A DNA stretch of 64,000 nt from an archaeon (lineage in GTDB: Archaea; Nanobdellota; Nanobdellia; Woesearchaeales; GW2011-AR9). Made by a program: the position numbers and the translations under genes. Under the pieces are notes generated by a model. It worked only from the letters and a program-made list of their open reading frames with translations. It was not told the DNA's origin and did not search any database. The stretch is from NCBI GenBank assembly GCA_018696395.1, contig JABHQR010000012.1, forward strand, positions 11,841 to 75,840, in the 5' to 3' direction. Every line of letters begins with the position of its first letter. Position 1 is the stretch's first letter. Below, one piece after another: positions 2,649 to 63,297 of this stretch.

Positions 2649-2807
2649 TCTCATGGGAAAACTTGCCTAAAATAAGCTTATTTTACTTATTTTGATTTGA
2701 TACTACTCTTTAGTAAAAAAAGAAACGAAACATTTATAAAGGAATTGAATTCTTAATCTTCTAACAAGTTTTAATCAATACAAGAGAGGTCTGAGTGATG
2801 TGTTTTT

Positions 2808-7364: not shown

Positions 7365-7448
7365 TGCGAAGGAAGGGGTTCGAACCCTCGCACTCACTAA
7401 GAGACTAGCCCCTCAAGCTAGCGCATTTGACCACTCTGCCACCTTCGC
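7365..7448 (-). tRNA. tRNA-Leu (anticodon GAG), class II, no intron
   Basis: Reverse-complement folds by hand: acceptor GCGAAGG/CCTTCGC with discriminator A, D stem GCA/TGC, anticodon stem CTAGC/GCTAG with loop TTGAGGG, 15-nt variable arm, T arm GAGGG-TTCGAAC-CCCTT. CCA is not encoded. Confidence 0.7.
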
Positions 7449-20817: not shown

Positions 20818-21561
20818 ATGGTTAAAGATAAATCTGTTAAAAAAATATTAATCTCTGCGAAAGGCAAAAAGAAATATTATGTGACTCAACTCAATGAAGA
20901 TTTTATCACTACAGAAGGTGTTGTTAAGAGTTTAGATTTAAGTTCTGAAAAAGAATTTATTGAAACTGATAAAGGAAATAAATTCCATTTGATAAATCCT
21001 TCAATTATTGATCTGATGGAAAAATTGAATCGTGGTCCACAAATAATTCAACCAAAAGATATTGGCTTAATTATGTCAAAAACTGGCATTAACAAGAACT
21101 CTTTAGTTGTTGATGCTGGGGTTGGTTCTGGTACTTTATCTTTGGCATTAGCTAACATTTGTAAACAAGTTACTGCTTATGAAATTAATAATAAACATTT
21201 GAATATTGCACAGAAAAATAAAGAGTTATTTGGGGCAGAAAATCTTGAAATTAAAAAAGGTGATGTAGCTGAAGAAATGACTGAAACAAATCTTGATTTA
21301 ATAACTTTGGATTTACCGCACCCTTGGGAAGTTGTTCCAAAAGCAGAATTAGCATTAAAATTAGGGTCTTATCTTGTTGTATATTTACCTAACATTTTAC
21401 AAATGAAAAAGTTTGTTGAATCATTGAAAGGAAGTAAAATTAAACTTTTAGAAGTAATTGAACTTATTGAACGTAAATGGAAAGTTGAAGAGAGAATTGT
21501 TCGTCCAGAAACTGCAGAATTGTCTCACACTGCATTTATGGCATTTTGTAGAAAAATGTGA
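20818..21561 (+). CDS. trmI: tRNA (adenine57/58-N1)-methyltransferase TrmI (GCD14 family)
   Basis: SAM motif VVDAGVGSGTLSLALA and the family-specific LITLDLPHPWEVV. Confidence 0.75.
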   Translation: MVKDKSVKKILISAKGKKKYYVTQLNEDFITTEGVVKSLDLSSEKEFIETDKGNKFHLINPSIIDLMEKLNRGPQIIQPKDIGLIMSKTGINKNSLVVDAGVGSGTLSLALANICKQVTAYEINNKHLNIAQKNKELFGAENLEIKKGDVAEEMTETNLDLITLDLPHPWEVVPKAELALKLGSYLVVYLPNILQMKKFVESLKGSKIKLLEVIELIERKWKVEERIVRPETAELSHTAFMAFCRKM

Positions 21562-21587: not shown

Positions 21588-22022
21588 GTGGTGAAAATGA
21601 AAGTTAAAATAAAGAGATTAAATTCTGAAGTGAAGTTACCCAATTATGCAAATCCTGGTGATGCTGGGATGGACTTTTTTTCTGCAGAAAATGTTATAAT
21701 TAATTCAGGTGAAAGAAAGACTGTAAAAACTGGAATTAGCATGGCAATTCCAGTGGGTTTTGTGGGTTTATTTTGGGACAAAAGTGGTTTAGCTTCTAAG
21801 AAAGGAATTAAAACTATGGCAGGTGTTATTGATTCTGGATTTCGTGGTGAGATTGGTATTGTATTAAAAAATTTAGGGGATGATGAGTTTGTTATTGAAA
21901 AGAATATGAAAATTGCTCAAATGCTAATTCAACCTATATACTCACCTGAATTAGAAGAAGTAGAATCTCTTGAAGAAACTGAACGAGGTCAAGGTGGATT
22001 TGGTAGTACTGGTCAATTCTGA
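21588..22022 (+). CDS. dut: dUTP diphosphatase (trimeric dUTPase)
   Basis: Motifs NPGDAGMDF, AGVIDSGFRGEIGIVLKNLG and C-terminal RGQGGFGSTG. Confidence 0.85.
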   Translation: MVKMKVKIKRLNSEVKLPNYANPGDAGMDFFSAENVIINSGERKTVKTGISMAIPVGFVGLFWDKSGLASKKGIKTMAGVIDSGFRGEIGIVLKNLGDDEFVIEKNMKIAQMLIQPIYSPELEEVESLEETERGQGGFGSTGQF

Positions 22023-22074
22023 GATTGATTATAGAAATTTTTATAAATAGGTACTTGATTTGACTTTACATTAT

Positions 22075-22165
22075 GCCTCAGTGGCTTAGCGGTTAGAGCA
22101 TGCGAGAATTCAATTCCATGAAGCTGTTAACCGCAGGGTCGTAGGTTCAATTCCTACCTGAGGCG
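22075..22165 (+). tRNA. tRNA-Asn (anticodon GTT) with an 18-nt intron inside the anticodon stem (~position 30/31; intron 22105..22122)
   Basis: Hand fold: acceptor GCCTCAG/CTGAGGC plus G73, D arm GCTT-AGCGGTTA-GAGC, T arm GTAGG-TTCAATT-CCTAC. The only splice that restores a 5-bp anticodon stem (TGCGG/CCGCA) and a canonical loop gives CTGTTAA. Confidence 0.6.
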
Positions 22166-22953
22166 CTTAGGGGGAATTCAATTCCCCTATCTTTTAATAT
22201 TTTTATTCTTTCATTAACATCTGTTCCAACTGGCAAACTGCCTGTTTCTTTCCATATCTCATAACGGGTTAAGGTATTGTAATTTGAAAATCCAATATCT
22301 TTCATCCATTGATTTAGTTTTTTCTTTCCATTAATTTCAACAATATAAGCAATTATTTTTGTTTTTTTTCTTTCCCTTTCTAATGTTGTTGAGTAAAAAT
22401 AAAAACCAAGTTCTTTTAATAATTCCTTAACTGATTCATGTAATGTTTTGCTGTATGTCCAGAAATTAATTACTGGTTTTCTACCTTGATTTTTGAAAAC
22501 TAAACTGAAATCTGTATCTGCTAATCCTCTCAAGAAACTTTGTTTTGTTATTTTATTGGAATTTTTAATTATATCTGGGACCTTAATCTTAATCTTTGGG
22601 CTAAATGGAATTTCACAACATTTATTTAAAAATAAAACAATTGCCTTTGATCTAAAAGAAATCATAACTGTTTTGTTACCCTTTCTAACATTAACCTCTT
22701 TATTAAATAATTGTTTAATTAATGATTTTAAGAATTCTTCATAGAATTTCCTTTCATTAACTTCATGGCCATTATAATCTACTCTATAATCTATCTTGTT
22801 TTTTCTTCTTTCAATTTTCATATAACCATCCCCTATATGAAAACCTAAAAAATAAGCTAATTCTGGTGTGATAATTTCGGGAACTTTAATTCCTAATCTA
22901 ATGTCATTTTTACTAAATTCTACATGTGATAAATCAAATTTCACACATTTCAT
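22147..22953 (-). CDS. free-standing double-motif LAGLIDADG homing endonuclease
   Basis: Motif 1 ELAYFLGFHIGDGYM and motif 2 FLRGLADTDFSL. 268 aa. Its last 19 nt, including the stop, overlap the tRNA-Asn T arm on the opposite strand. Confidence 0.75.
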   Translation of the reverse strand: MKCVKFDLSHVEFSKNDIRLGIKVPEIITPELAYFLGFHIGDGYMKIERRKNKIDYRVDYNGHEVNERKFYEEFLKSLIKQLFNKEVNVRKGNKTVMISFRSKAIVLFLNKCCEIPFSPKIKIKVPDIIKNSNKITKQSFLRGLADTDFSLVFKNQGRKPVINFWTYSKTLHESVKELLKELGFYFYSTTLERERKKTKIIAYIVEINGKKKLNQWMKDIGFSNYNTLTRYEIWKETGSLPVGTDVNERIKILKDRGIEFPLSASGRN

Positions 22954-23164
22954 TATATATCACCTTCAAGTTTTTGTGGATTTAAACTTGGTTTTTTGAG
23001 GAAAAAAGTTAATTTAGTGTAACTCATTAAATTTCTTTTTGATATTTTCAAAAGAATTTTATTAAGAGTTTTGCATTAGTTCTTTTTCTATATCTTCCTA
23101 TTTTGTTGCTATATAAAACTTATGTAGGCTTGTCCAGTGGGTAAGTGGCATGAGTGTCTTCTTC

Positions 23165-23434
23165 TTAATTTTCCAATCCGACAGAATAAATTTTTTCAGC
23201 AATTTTTTCCATTAAATCGTGATCTTCACAATTTTTGAACATAAGTTCACCATGACCATGACAAATTATTTCTACATTTTCAATTTCAAGAACAAGTAAA
23301 ATTTTAGTTTCCATAATAACTTTAAACTTTTTATTAATATTTTCTAAATTGATTTTTCTAGGTCGTTTAAGTTTAGCAGAATATGCTGCTTTTGTTTTAC
23401 ACTTACTTAAAATATATTGCTCTTTGACATTCAT
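23165..23434 (-). CDS. hypothetical small protein
   Basis: 89-aa ORF only, no further support. Confidence 0.3.
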   Translation of the reverse strand: MNVKEQYILSKCKTKAAYSAKLKRPRKINLENINKKFKVIMETKILLVLEIENVEIICHGHGELMFKNCEDHDLMEKIAEKIYSVGLEN

Positions 23435-23559: not shown

Positions 23560-23982
23560 GTGATTATAATGGCTAAAAAATCTAAAAAATCTAAGGTGCA
23601 ACCTTTAAAGCAACTTCTTTCTGACACTGGTAAGAAAGAATTACACCAATTAGCTCACTACTCTTTTTTTGCAGGAGTTATTGTAGCAATTTTGGCAGGC
23701 TGGTTAAATGTGGCATTTCCAGGATTATTAAGTTCAACAGTTTTAATGACAACTTTAGTAATTTTAGGTACGTTAGTTGGTTTATTTAATTTAACTACAA
23801 AAGAAACAACTCCTTTCTTAGCTGCAGCTATAGCTTTAATGTTAGCGGGTATTGTTAATTTAGGTTTAGTTTGGGGTATTGGTCTTTACTTAAGGTCAAT
23901 GTTAAGTAACATTGTTGTTTTTGTTGTACCTGGTGCAATTATCGTTGCAATGAAAAGTATCTGGAAGTTAGCATCTAACTAA
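23560..23982 (+). CDS. hypothetical membrane protein (4 predicted TM helices)
   Basis: Hydrophobic segments throughout. SD AAGAGGTGA upstream. Confidence 0.45.
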   Translation: MIIMAKKSKKSKVQPLKQLLSDTGKKELHQLAHYSFFAGVIVAILAGWLNVAFPGLLSSTVLMTTLVILGTLVGLFNLTTKETTPFLAAAIALMLAGIVNLGLVWGIGLYLRSMLSNIVVFVVPGAIIVAMKSIWKLASN

Positions 23983-63128: not shown

Positions 63129-63239
63129 TGCTCAGATCGCATAATTTGGTATTGCGCTGGACTGCTATATCTTTCATAAGCAATCTTTGCAGCCATCCAG
63201 TTTCCTTTTGGATATCTGGGTTCAAATCCCAGTCTGAGC
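63129..63239 (+). tRNA. tRNA-Ser (anticodon GCT), class II, with a 27-nt canonical 37/38 intron (~63166..63192)
   Basis: Hand fold: acceptor GCTCAGA/TCTGAGC plus G, anticodon stem CTGGA/TCCAG with loop CTGCTA|A, 15-nt variable arm, T arm CTGGG-TTCAAAT-CCCAG. Confidence 0.6.
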
Positions 63240-63297
63240 GTATTACCTTTTTTTCTTTACCCAAAACTTAATATACATCGATTCTCTTCTTTTAGTT

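Follow-up and report, generated by a model that had tools for sequence, protein, structure and literature searches.

Free-standing LAGLIDADG endonuclease genes next to tRNA genes in DPANN archaea

The stretch of DNA we have analyzed (the window, 64,000 nucleotides (nt) of contig JABHQR010000012.1, from an archaeon of the Woesearchaeales) contains a gene coding for a LAGLIDADG endonuclease of 268 amino acids (aa), which converges on an interrupted tRNA-Asn gene and runs into it. Related genes are found in other genomes, and their adjacency to tRNA genes is far beyond chance. The explanation that we favor, on balance, is that they form a family of free-standing homing endonuclease genes in DPANN archaea, living in a slot which flanks a tRNA gene. 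In the window, this slot would be the space between tRNA-Asn and a conserved gene, c5.

The mobile unit would be a cassette made of a promoter and ribosome-binding site of its own, the open reading frame (ORF) and often a terminal hairpin, with its end a few nt from the mature tRNA 3' end. The enzyme would cut alleles without endonuclease, with its target in or near the T arm, acceptor or trailer, on the 3' side of the cognate tRNA gene. Repair of the double-strand break from a carrier would then copy the cassette in, at times co-converting the adjacent T arm. The carrier allele would be protected mainly by the cassette, which would replace the trailer half of the site, and no intron would be needed.

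Free-standing homing endonucleases and archaeal tRNA introns are each already known. In the searchable literature we have found no prior description of a cellular LAGLIDADG family with lineages dedicated to the flanks of single tRNAs; the DPANN family is apparently undescribed so far. What was a single odd overlap becomes a family-wide, testable association between homing endonucleases and tRNA genes.

Linkage of the family to tRNA genes

A scan of one genome per GTDB species gave 55 loci with members of the family. At the Rfam gathering threshold, 27 of them have a tRNA in the interval from -97 to +31 nt relative to the ORF stop; the other 19 tRNAs found in these 310 kb give a density from which about 0.7 loci would be expected (Poisson P<1e-30). 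Rfam misses tRNAs with several introns, so the count is higher when intron-tolerant ARAGORN predictions and direct reading are used: About 47 of the 55 loci have a tRNA within approximately 100 nt of the ORF 3' end. The first-pass annotation of the window had taken relatives without any tRNA association as evidence against a link, and this is not what the family presents.

Most pairs are convergent, as in the window, and about 36 of the 45 members with a linked tRNA are encoded on its opposite strand. There are some nine co-directional pairs, in which the ORF ends 3–70 nt before the tRNA 5' end or overlaps the tRNA, and in two loci (L037 and L040) the tRNA is upstream of the ORF. The same annotation had suggested an excised or "escaped" intron ORF. 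We have abandoned this idea: None of more than 55 relatives lies inside an intron, the prevailing antisense orientation is unlike that of an intron ORF, and the nearest matches in sequence and fold are the endonuclease domains of archaeal inteins (RtcB, V-ATPase, PI-PfuI) no less than I-DmoI.

In a neighbor-joining tree of the proteins, the family is divided in clades which are each associated with one tRNA: Asn-1, Asn-2, Thr(UGU), Tyr(GUA), Cys(GCA), and Ile(UAU). The window enzyme belongs to Asn-1, while Asn-2 is formed by L048, L053, L056, L063, and L085. Single members are found at Ile(GAU), Arg(UCU), probably Lys, and Phe. Some genomes contain two or three copies, each of them at a different tRNA. 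In the window, on the other hand, no family members or remnants were detected at E<10 beside the other tRNA genes, tRNA-Leu (7365-7448) and tRNA-Ser(GCU) (63130-63240), when its whole length was searched.

Viral contigs were also searched. A single distant relative was found (L136 429-1146, an IMG/VR contig, 30% identity), with a bacterial-type tRNA-Ser(GGA) which has an encoded CCA end and lies 25 nt downstream in the same direction. From this case, tRNA adjacency may extend beyond archaea. One distant relative in a viral contig gives no evidence of a viral vector.

Several of the contigs in our set (L001, L003, L004, L008, and others) are labeled "Candidatus Nomurabacteria bacterium" or "uncultured Methanosarcinales archaeon". 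As they contain archaeal tRNAs with bulge-helix-bulge (BHB) introns, these labels probably correspond to mis-binning or to generic labeling of DPANN contigs.

Presence, absence and replacement beside tRNA-Asn

The gene order in the nearest clade is c2(-) c5(+) endonuclease(+) tRNA-Asn(-) c4(+), where c4 codes for a metallophosphoesterase. Homologous tRNA-Asn genes adjoin homologous endonucleases in L001-L006, L008-L013, L016, and others. In the window, a dUTPase gene (21588-22022, plus strand) is found on the tRNA side in place of c4, so the pair formed by tRNA and endonuclease has stayed together while one flank changed. The dUTPase is preceded by a gene for a GCD14/TrmI-type tRNA methyltransferase (20818-21561, plus strand).

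We have used c4 as bait in metagenome contigs, which gave 80 loci; many of the loci belong to the same projects (series Ga0209541 and Ga0209542). They include alleles with a window-type enzyme (HE1), alleles with a family member which is about 34% identical to it (HE2), and empty alleles. HE1 occupies the slot in L061, L062, L065, L067, L070, and L078, and HE2 in L056, L063, and L085. No endonuclease is found in L058, L064, L066, L069, L071, L072, L073, L077, and L093; in these empty alleles, the c5 stop is 6–250 nt from the tRNA 3' end. A comparison of the tRNA-Asn locus in related genomes, which had been proposed as a check, thus gives alleles with and without endonuclease in the same context. 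A fourth group of alleles has an unrelated ORF in the slot. These states are interleaved in a tree of the host marker c4, where L093 (empty) is sister to L003 (HE1), L062 (HE1) to L063 (HE2), and L076 (no endonuclease) to L005 and L006 (HE1).

Pairwise blastn alignments allow us to place the breakpoints. Between L065 and L073, 953 nt correspond to 60 nt, and homology resumes exactly at the endonuclease stop and the tRNA 3' end. L061 and L056 differ by an exchange of the ORF alone, with homology maintained in the spacer before it and in the tRNA, whose T-arm intron is also homologous. This spacer, of about 140 nt, is conserved between HE1-type and HE2-type loci. Between L062 and L063, the exchanged segment reaches into the tRNA. 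In fact, the alignment presents the L063 tRNA as a mosaic, with the 5' two-thirds of its neighbors and a T arm (CACCAG/CUGGU) as in L057 and L053. The gene is therefore present or absent at a fixed site, and its breakpoints and mosaic tRNA form the pattern expected, at the sequence level, of a homing endonuclease gene with co-conversion tracts of variable length; gene conversion itself would be the process behind it. Seven of the 55 copies contain internal stop codons, as expected if copies are gained, decay and are lost in a cycle, although errors in metagenome-assembled genomes may be an alternative cause.

We have also considered the integration of a larger element, a virus or plasmid, at the tRNA. 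The insertion amounts to the ORF and some 140 nt of spacer before it, and neither an integrase nor direct repeats are found in the segment that distinguishes alleles with and without endonuclease, so this possibility was discarded.

A separate observation concerns L059 and L060. Some 100 nt before the intact tRNA-Asn gene, both have the isolated 5' part of another allele of it (gcctcagtagcttagcgg...), which resembles a footprint left by allele replacement.

The endonuclease, the tRNA-Asn gene and their junction

The features of the region are collected in Table 1. The first-pass annotation had described a free-standing gene for a two-motif enzyme of 268 aa on the strand opposite to the tRNA. 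This description holds: The gene has its own start codon and a ribosome-binding site, and Pfam detects no Hint or intein blocks in the protein, which sets it apart from an intein-associated endonuclease. The putative TTTAAAT box, similar to a TATA box, and the GGTGA site may serve its expression.

Table 1. Features of the window around the endonuclease and tRNA-Asn genes.
Feature	Position	Strand	Basis or comment
Putative TATA box (tttataaata) of the tRNA-Asn gene, -35 to -26	22040..22049	plus	read from sequence
tRNA-Asn(GUU) gene, interrupted	22075..22165	plus	Rfam RF00005, 50.4 bits; anticodon read by hand
BHB intron, 18 nt, between tRNA positions 30 and 31	22105..22122	plus	excision restores anticodon stem
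12-mer GAATTCAATTCC inside the intron	22106..22117	plus	also found at 22174-22185, within the trailer hairpin
Free-standing two-domain LAGLIDADG endonuclease gene, 268 aa	22147..22953	minus	ORF, ATG start
Hairpin uaGGGGGAAuucaaUUCCCCua directly after the tRNA 3' end	22168..22189		minimum free energy -11.3 kcal/mol, z=-5
LAGLIDADG motif 2, FLRGLADTDFS, residues 140-150, catalytic D148, also D146	22504..22536	minus	alignment
LAGLIDADG motif 1, LAYFLGFHIGDGY, residues 32-44, catalytic D42	22822..22860	minus	alignment
Putative expression signals of the endonuclease gene: GGTGA ribosome-binding site (22960-22964), TTTAAAT box (22980-22988)	22960..22988	minus	read from sequence
c5, conserved neighbor, 89 aa, no Pfam family, other edge of the insertion slot	23165..23434	minus	synteny
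c2	23560-23982		synteny

Two LAGLIDADG motifs are present in a single chain, each of them with a conserved acidic residue, the catalytic one, towards its C-terminal end. Pfam identifies LAGLIDADG_3 in residues 138-213 (E=6e-9), with weak matches of the N-terminal half to LAGLIDADG_1/2, and NCBIfam matches are confined to the endonuclease portions of the models for intein-containing RtcB, V-ATPase, DnaB, and GyrA. The whole chain is modeled by AlphaFold2 as an endonuclease with short extensions and the pseudo-symmetric double alpha-beta-beta-alpha-beta-beta-alpha fold (predicted local distance difference test, pLDDT, 94.8; predicted template modeling (TM) score 0.92). Foldseek matches with probability 1.0 include the intein endonuclease domains TliVMA, PI-PfuI, and PI-TkoII, as well as I-DmoI, I-AniI, and I-OnuI; the bI3 maturase is also among the matches. 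For I-DmoI, the target-normalized TM-score is about 0.8, with about 20% identity. By fold and motifs the protein is a monomeric LAGLIDADG endonuclease; double-strand cleavage is predicted from them.

More than 100 homologues were found, with 35–65% identity and 230–300 aa; those with a name belong to Woesearchaeota, Nanoarchaeota, and Micrarchaeota. A profile search of 1.84 billion cluster representatives gave 568 clusters at E<=1e-30 and 3329 at E<=1e-10, which places the size of the family at 568 clusters or more at 50% identity. In an alignment of 32 sequences G43, D146, and D148 are invariant and D42 nearly so. Among the 61 sequences derived from the genome loci, D42 is found in 59 of 59 full-length copies and D148 in all 61. 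We should note that the search pattern for these loci contained ADTD, so the conservation of D146 and D148 is partly built in, and the alignment of 32 sequences is the independent evidence for these two residues. Loss of the catalytic aspartates, which had been put forward as a sign of an inactive enzyme, is not seen in the family. The ratio of nonsynonymous to synonymous substitution rates (dN/dS) is 0.09–0.12 in six orthologous pairs: The endonuclease is under strong purifying selection. Both features make endonuclease activity plausible.

The tRNA gene has a 27-nt insertion in the anticodon region of its Rfam alignment. When the 18-nt intron is excised, reading by hand gives a perfect UGCGG/CCGCA anticodon stem and a CUGUUAA loop; therefore, the tRNA is Asn(GUU). 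ARAGORN, on the other hand, predicts tRNA-Glu(ttc) in 22075-22166. This assignment was rejected, since it has an A instead of a U before the anticodon (U33 is absent) and is surpassed by tRNA-Asn with a 30/31 intron: In this reading the stem is perfect, the loop is canonical, and a BHB motif is present. When genomes of this kind are annotated automatically, tRNAs whose introns are non-canonical will be overlooked or given a wrong identity.

A 3-4-3 BHB motif may be drawn by hand, with a CAUG(22099-22102)/CAUG(22117-22120) helix, bulges CGA and AAG, and both splice sites between bulge nucleotides 2 and 3. It is a relaxed form of the motif, with an outer helix of about 2 bp. The minimum free energy structure of the pre-tRNA obtained with RNAfold also contains helix, bulge and helix, in a slightly shifted register; the 37-nt intron region folded alone gives no significant structure. 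As the motif is short, the case for a BHB intron rests on the position of the splice sites. Introns at 30/31 are also present in L085 and L057. Upstream of tRNA-Asn, the "aaatatttataaat" element is found in all related loci, and tttataaata probably acts as the TATA box of this gene.

The length of 18 nt that had been given for the intron is correct, and the ORF itself lies outside the tRNA, on the opposite strand. The place given for the stop codon and the length given for the overlap are correct as well: The TGA stop is the complement of 22147-22149, within the T loop (22146-22152), and ORF and tRNA share 22147-22165, 19 nt. The proposed cassette comes to within a few nt of the 3' end of the mature tRNA, which explains why its ORF meets a stop only in the T arm, after 19 nt of overlap. 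The last three residues of the protein have a pLDDT below 50 and sequence conservation fades over the last ten or so, and for this reason the overlap is best seen as a by-product of tight packing, with the ORF reading on to the first stop, and not as a functional fusion. Several homologues extend further, with tails which are antisense translations of the tRNA; one of them (...RVGFEPTTARLTASR) spells the GUU anticodon loop.

The opposite strand of the trailer hairpin codes for the endonuclease tail RGIEFPL, with the conserved C-terminal RGIxFP. Stable trailer hairpins are found in many alleles with endonuclease and are wanting in alleles without it: The median minimum free energy of the trailer is -6.7 and -1.1 kcal/mol, respectively (Mann-Whitney P=2e-4). 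The Tyr, Thr, and HE2 clades also have junction hairpins, with different sequences. The hairpin is probably part of the cassette, and could be a terminator or a barrier between convergent transcripts.

The 12-mer common to intron and hairpin has a third copy at 2741-2752 (minus strand). It was noticed post hoc; 12 nt or more are shared with the flanks in 23 of 20000 shuffled introns. This similarity hints that intron sequence may have been copied from the flank.

The window contains a second interrupted tRNA gene, the tRNA-Ser(GCU) at 63130-63240 (plus strand), identified by hand. Its variable arm is long, and its intron, of about 29 nt, is at 37/38, the canonical position. The gene is detected by Rfam with 46.9 bits and missed by ARAGORN.

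Introns, alternative explanations and related systems

Several observations weigh against homing at the tRNA flank as we have described it. The oligo-T just after the tRNA is kept in carrier alleles, so protection through replacement of the trailer is not evident from the sequence. L042, L045, and L046 form a small clade with no tRNA neighbor and an RNase HII-like gene next to the endonuclease; this lineage may have switched target or been domesticated. The slot between c5 and tRNA-Asn is also occupied by unrelated ORFs in L057, L059/L060, L068, L076, L079, and L087. L057 and L059 have an unknown protein of about 200 aa in common, other occupants are an aspartyl-protease-like ORF and a 364-aa ORF, and L003 contains an extra RelA/SpoT-like ORF (1615-2757). 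The tRNA flank is thus a small variable islet, and may be a general hot spot for insertion. The endonuclease identities among L001-L006 and the window run parallel to those of c2, c5, and c4, which means that much of the history within the clade is vertical and would also fit a host function.

The introns suggest a different explanation, an arms race or collaborative homing. The enzyme would recognize the uninterrupted tRNA gene, and BHB introns would confer immunity by splitting the site; endonuclease and introns would then spread together, and targeted tRNAs would accumulate introns. The association of clades with single tRNAs argues that tRNA sequence is recognized, and tRNAs adjoining an endonuclease are fragmented to an unusual degree. 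Introns interrupt them at 30/31, 37/38, 45/46, and 53/54 (T arm), as well as in the D and T loops. A striking case is tRNA-Asn, a 73-nt tRNA which has about four introns in L008 and L021 and three in L012, L013, and L016, all of them short, separate and beside an endonuclease. To our knowledge, they are among the most fragmented tRNA genes, and most of these genes with three or four introns score under the Rfam threshold. Introns are present in 20 of 27 adjacent tRNAs and in about 7 of the 18 non-adjacent tRNAs of the same loci. In addition, the 53/54 T-arm intron, and no other, is in excess in alleles with endonuclease: Nine of 15 have it, and two of 18 alleles without endonuclease. T-loop introns show the opposite distribution (0/15 and 6/18). 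These tendencies are suggestive, but none of the counts is corrected for relatedness.

Nevertheless, intact endonucleases are found beside intron-less tRNAs in L001, L063, L019, L022, L023, L024, and L029, with some of the intron-less carriers in the Cys and Thr clades. In the controlled tRNA-Asn/c4 set we have found no strict correlation between endonuclease and introns: The mean number of introns is about 1.2 with endonuclease and 1.1 without it. Intron positions vary within a clade, and the counts are small and come from sequences which are not phylogenetically independent. Carriers without introns and empty alleles with introns indicate that introns are neither necessary for carrying the endonuclease nor dependent on it. 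The second suggestion of the first-pass annotation, an enzyme which targets the intron-less allele, corresponds to this model and is weakened by these observations. Of the features of collaborative homing, an endonuclease beside an intron-containing gene is present in the window, but introns do not come and go together with the endonuclease. The intron is therefore not supported as an immunity determinant as a rule, and we consider this explanation unlikely, though a looser arms race may be at work.

Somewhat less probable still, in our opinion, is a domesticated protein, derived from a LAGLIDADG endonuclease, which would bind or nick DNA in a sequence-specific manner and serve the host at the neighboring tRNA gene, for instance in regulation, in termination or as a defense against integrating elements. 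A dN/dS of about 0.1, orthologue identities that follow those of c2, c5, and c4, the synteny kept within clades, and the conserved hairpin at the junction would all agree with it. On the other hand, a host function does not account well for the presence, absence and replacement of types among close relatives in an identical context, the patchy distribution of the family, the existence of pseudogenes, or the retention of catalytic residues, and a separate paralogue for each tRNA species is hard to square with a housekeeping role.

It is quite improbable that the tRNA 3' flank is simply a permissive or recombinogenic site, with the endonuclease as a passenger which has no specific relation to the tRNA. 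The unrelated ORFs in the tRNA-Asn slot would be expected in such a case, but about 47 of 55 members are linked to tRNAs when about 1% is expected per locus, the ORFs end a few nt from the tRNA boundary in either tRNA orientation, clades are tied to one tRNA identity, and two independent lineages, HE1 and HE2, are found at the same site. A maturase-like RNA chaperone, which would assist the neighboring pre-tRNA, with its several introns, in forming BHB motifs for splicing, is very improbable: The LAGLIDADG proteins I-AniI and bI3 maturase, both among the fold matches, are splicing factors, and in many linked tRNAs the BHB motif of a non-canonical intron is in competition with the cloverleaf, but there are members beside intron-less tRNAs, the catalytic aspartates are invariant, and we know of no precedent for protein-assisted BHB splicing beyond EndA.

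We have compared the tRNA-linked homing endonucleases that we propose with known systems. I-DmoI, I-PorI, and I-ApeI are also archaeal and share the monomeric two-motif fold, in which both motifs end in a catalytic acidic residue. They are encoded on the sense strand inside BHB introns of rRNA, whereas the window gene is outside the tRNA and antisense. The window enzyme is about 80 aa longer (30 aa at the N-terminus and a three-helix C-terminal extension), and its second motif ends in DTDF, not in G as in the I-DmoI type. PI-PfuI, TliVMA, PI-TkoII, and the RtcB and V-ATPase inteins are the best matches in sequence and fold, with LAGLIDADG_3 in common, but the window gene has no Hint or splicing blocks and no host extein, and has its own start codon and ribosome-binding site.

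As to its proposed function, the window gene is closest to free-standing homing endonuclease genes such as SegB or MobE of phage T4 and to the free-standing LAGLIDADG ORFs of organelles. SegB is a free-standing GIY-YIG homing endonuclease in the T4 tRNA gene cluster, which reportedly cuts the tRNA region of genomes without SegB and spreads by co-conversion. SegB and tRNA genes also appear in PMC13096335. The resemblance to the window gene lies in a free-standing homing endonuclease gene among tRNA genes; SegB differs in that it belongs to another nuclease superfamily and to a phage, at a single locus, with no tRNA-specific clades and no BHB introns. Cyanophage F-CphI, with the psbA intron, is a case of collaborative or trans homing. 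Another case is T4 MobE with the I-TevIII intron (PMC2790892). Like the window gene, both are free-standing endonuclease genes beside an intron-containing target gene. Nevertheless, in these systems the intron interrupts the cleavage site and moves with the endonuclease, while the window family has protein-spliced BHB introns and no allele-by-allele correlation. Free-standing LAGLIDADG ORFs with presence/absence polymorphism are also found in intergenic slots beside conserved genes of organelle genomes (PMC4524492, PMC5630911), where a systematic, clade-specific linkage to tRNAs has not been reported.

According to the hypothesis of Randau and Soll, as cited in PMC4090602, tRNA introns and split tRNA genes protect against mobile elements. 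It would supply a selective logic for the intron-rich tRNAs beside the family. In the form cited there it concerned integrating viruses and plasmids, and a tRNA-directed homing endonuclease was not proposed as the agent; viruses and integrating elements are the sole selective agents mentioned in reviews on archaeal tRNA introns (PMC4090602). As a tentative idea, which we consider rather doubtful, the tRNA genes of DPANN archaea could owe their extreme fragmentation to selection by tRNA-directed homing endonucleases. Repeated cutting would favor alleles whose spliceable BHB insertions break the recognition site, and such insertions could arise as filler DNA in break repair, as the 12 nt common to intron and trailer hairpin might suggest. 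If this were true, it would account for tRNAs with two to four introns, perhaps for split tRNA genes, and would give a concrete culprit for the "protection" hypothesis of Randau and Soll.

If tRNA genes are indeed cut, the family would be a new source of natural meganucleases, with targets that may be predicted from known tRNA sequences. It would also give a tractable explanation of particular DPANN tRNA genes as hot spots of allele replacement, and an experimental handle on the build-up of non-canonical introns and on the splitting of archaeal tRNA genes. HE1, HE2, and empty alleles in a single gene context are natural substrates with and without endonuclease.

The tRNA-Tyr(GUA) genes of L034, L039, L043, and L049, which lie just past the endonuclease stop (3717-3879 in L043), contain introns of about 75–90 nt. 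A search of Rfam with the L043 intron gave no match. All four introns share a conserved stretch of about 60 nt (caaagatgcgcu..gaccuuaug..aaggaaugauagagagccagccaa), which may correspond to an intron-borne small RNA.

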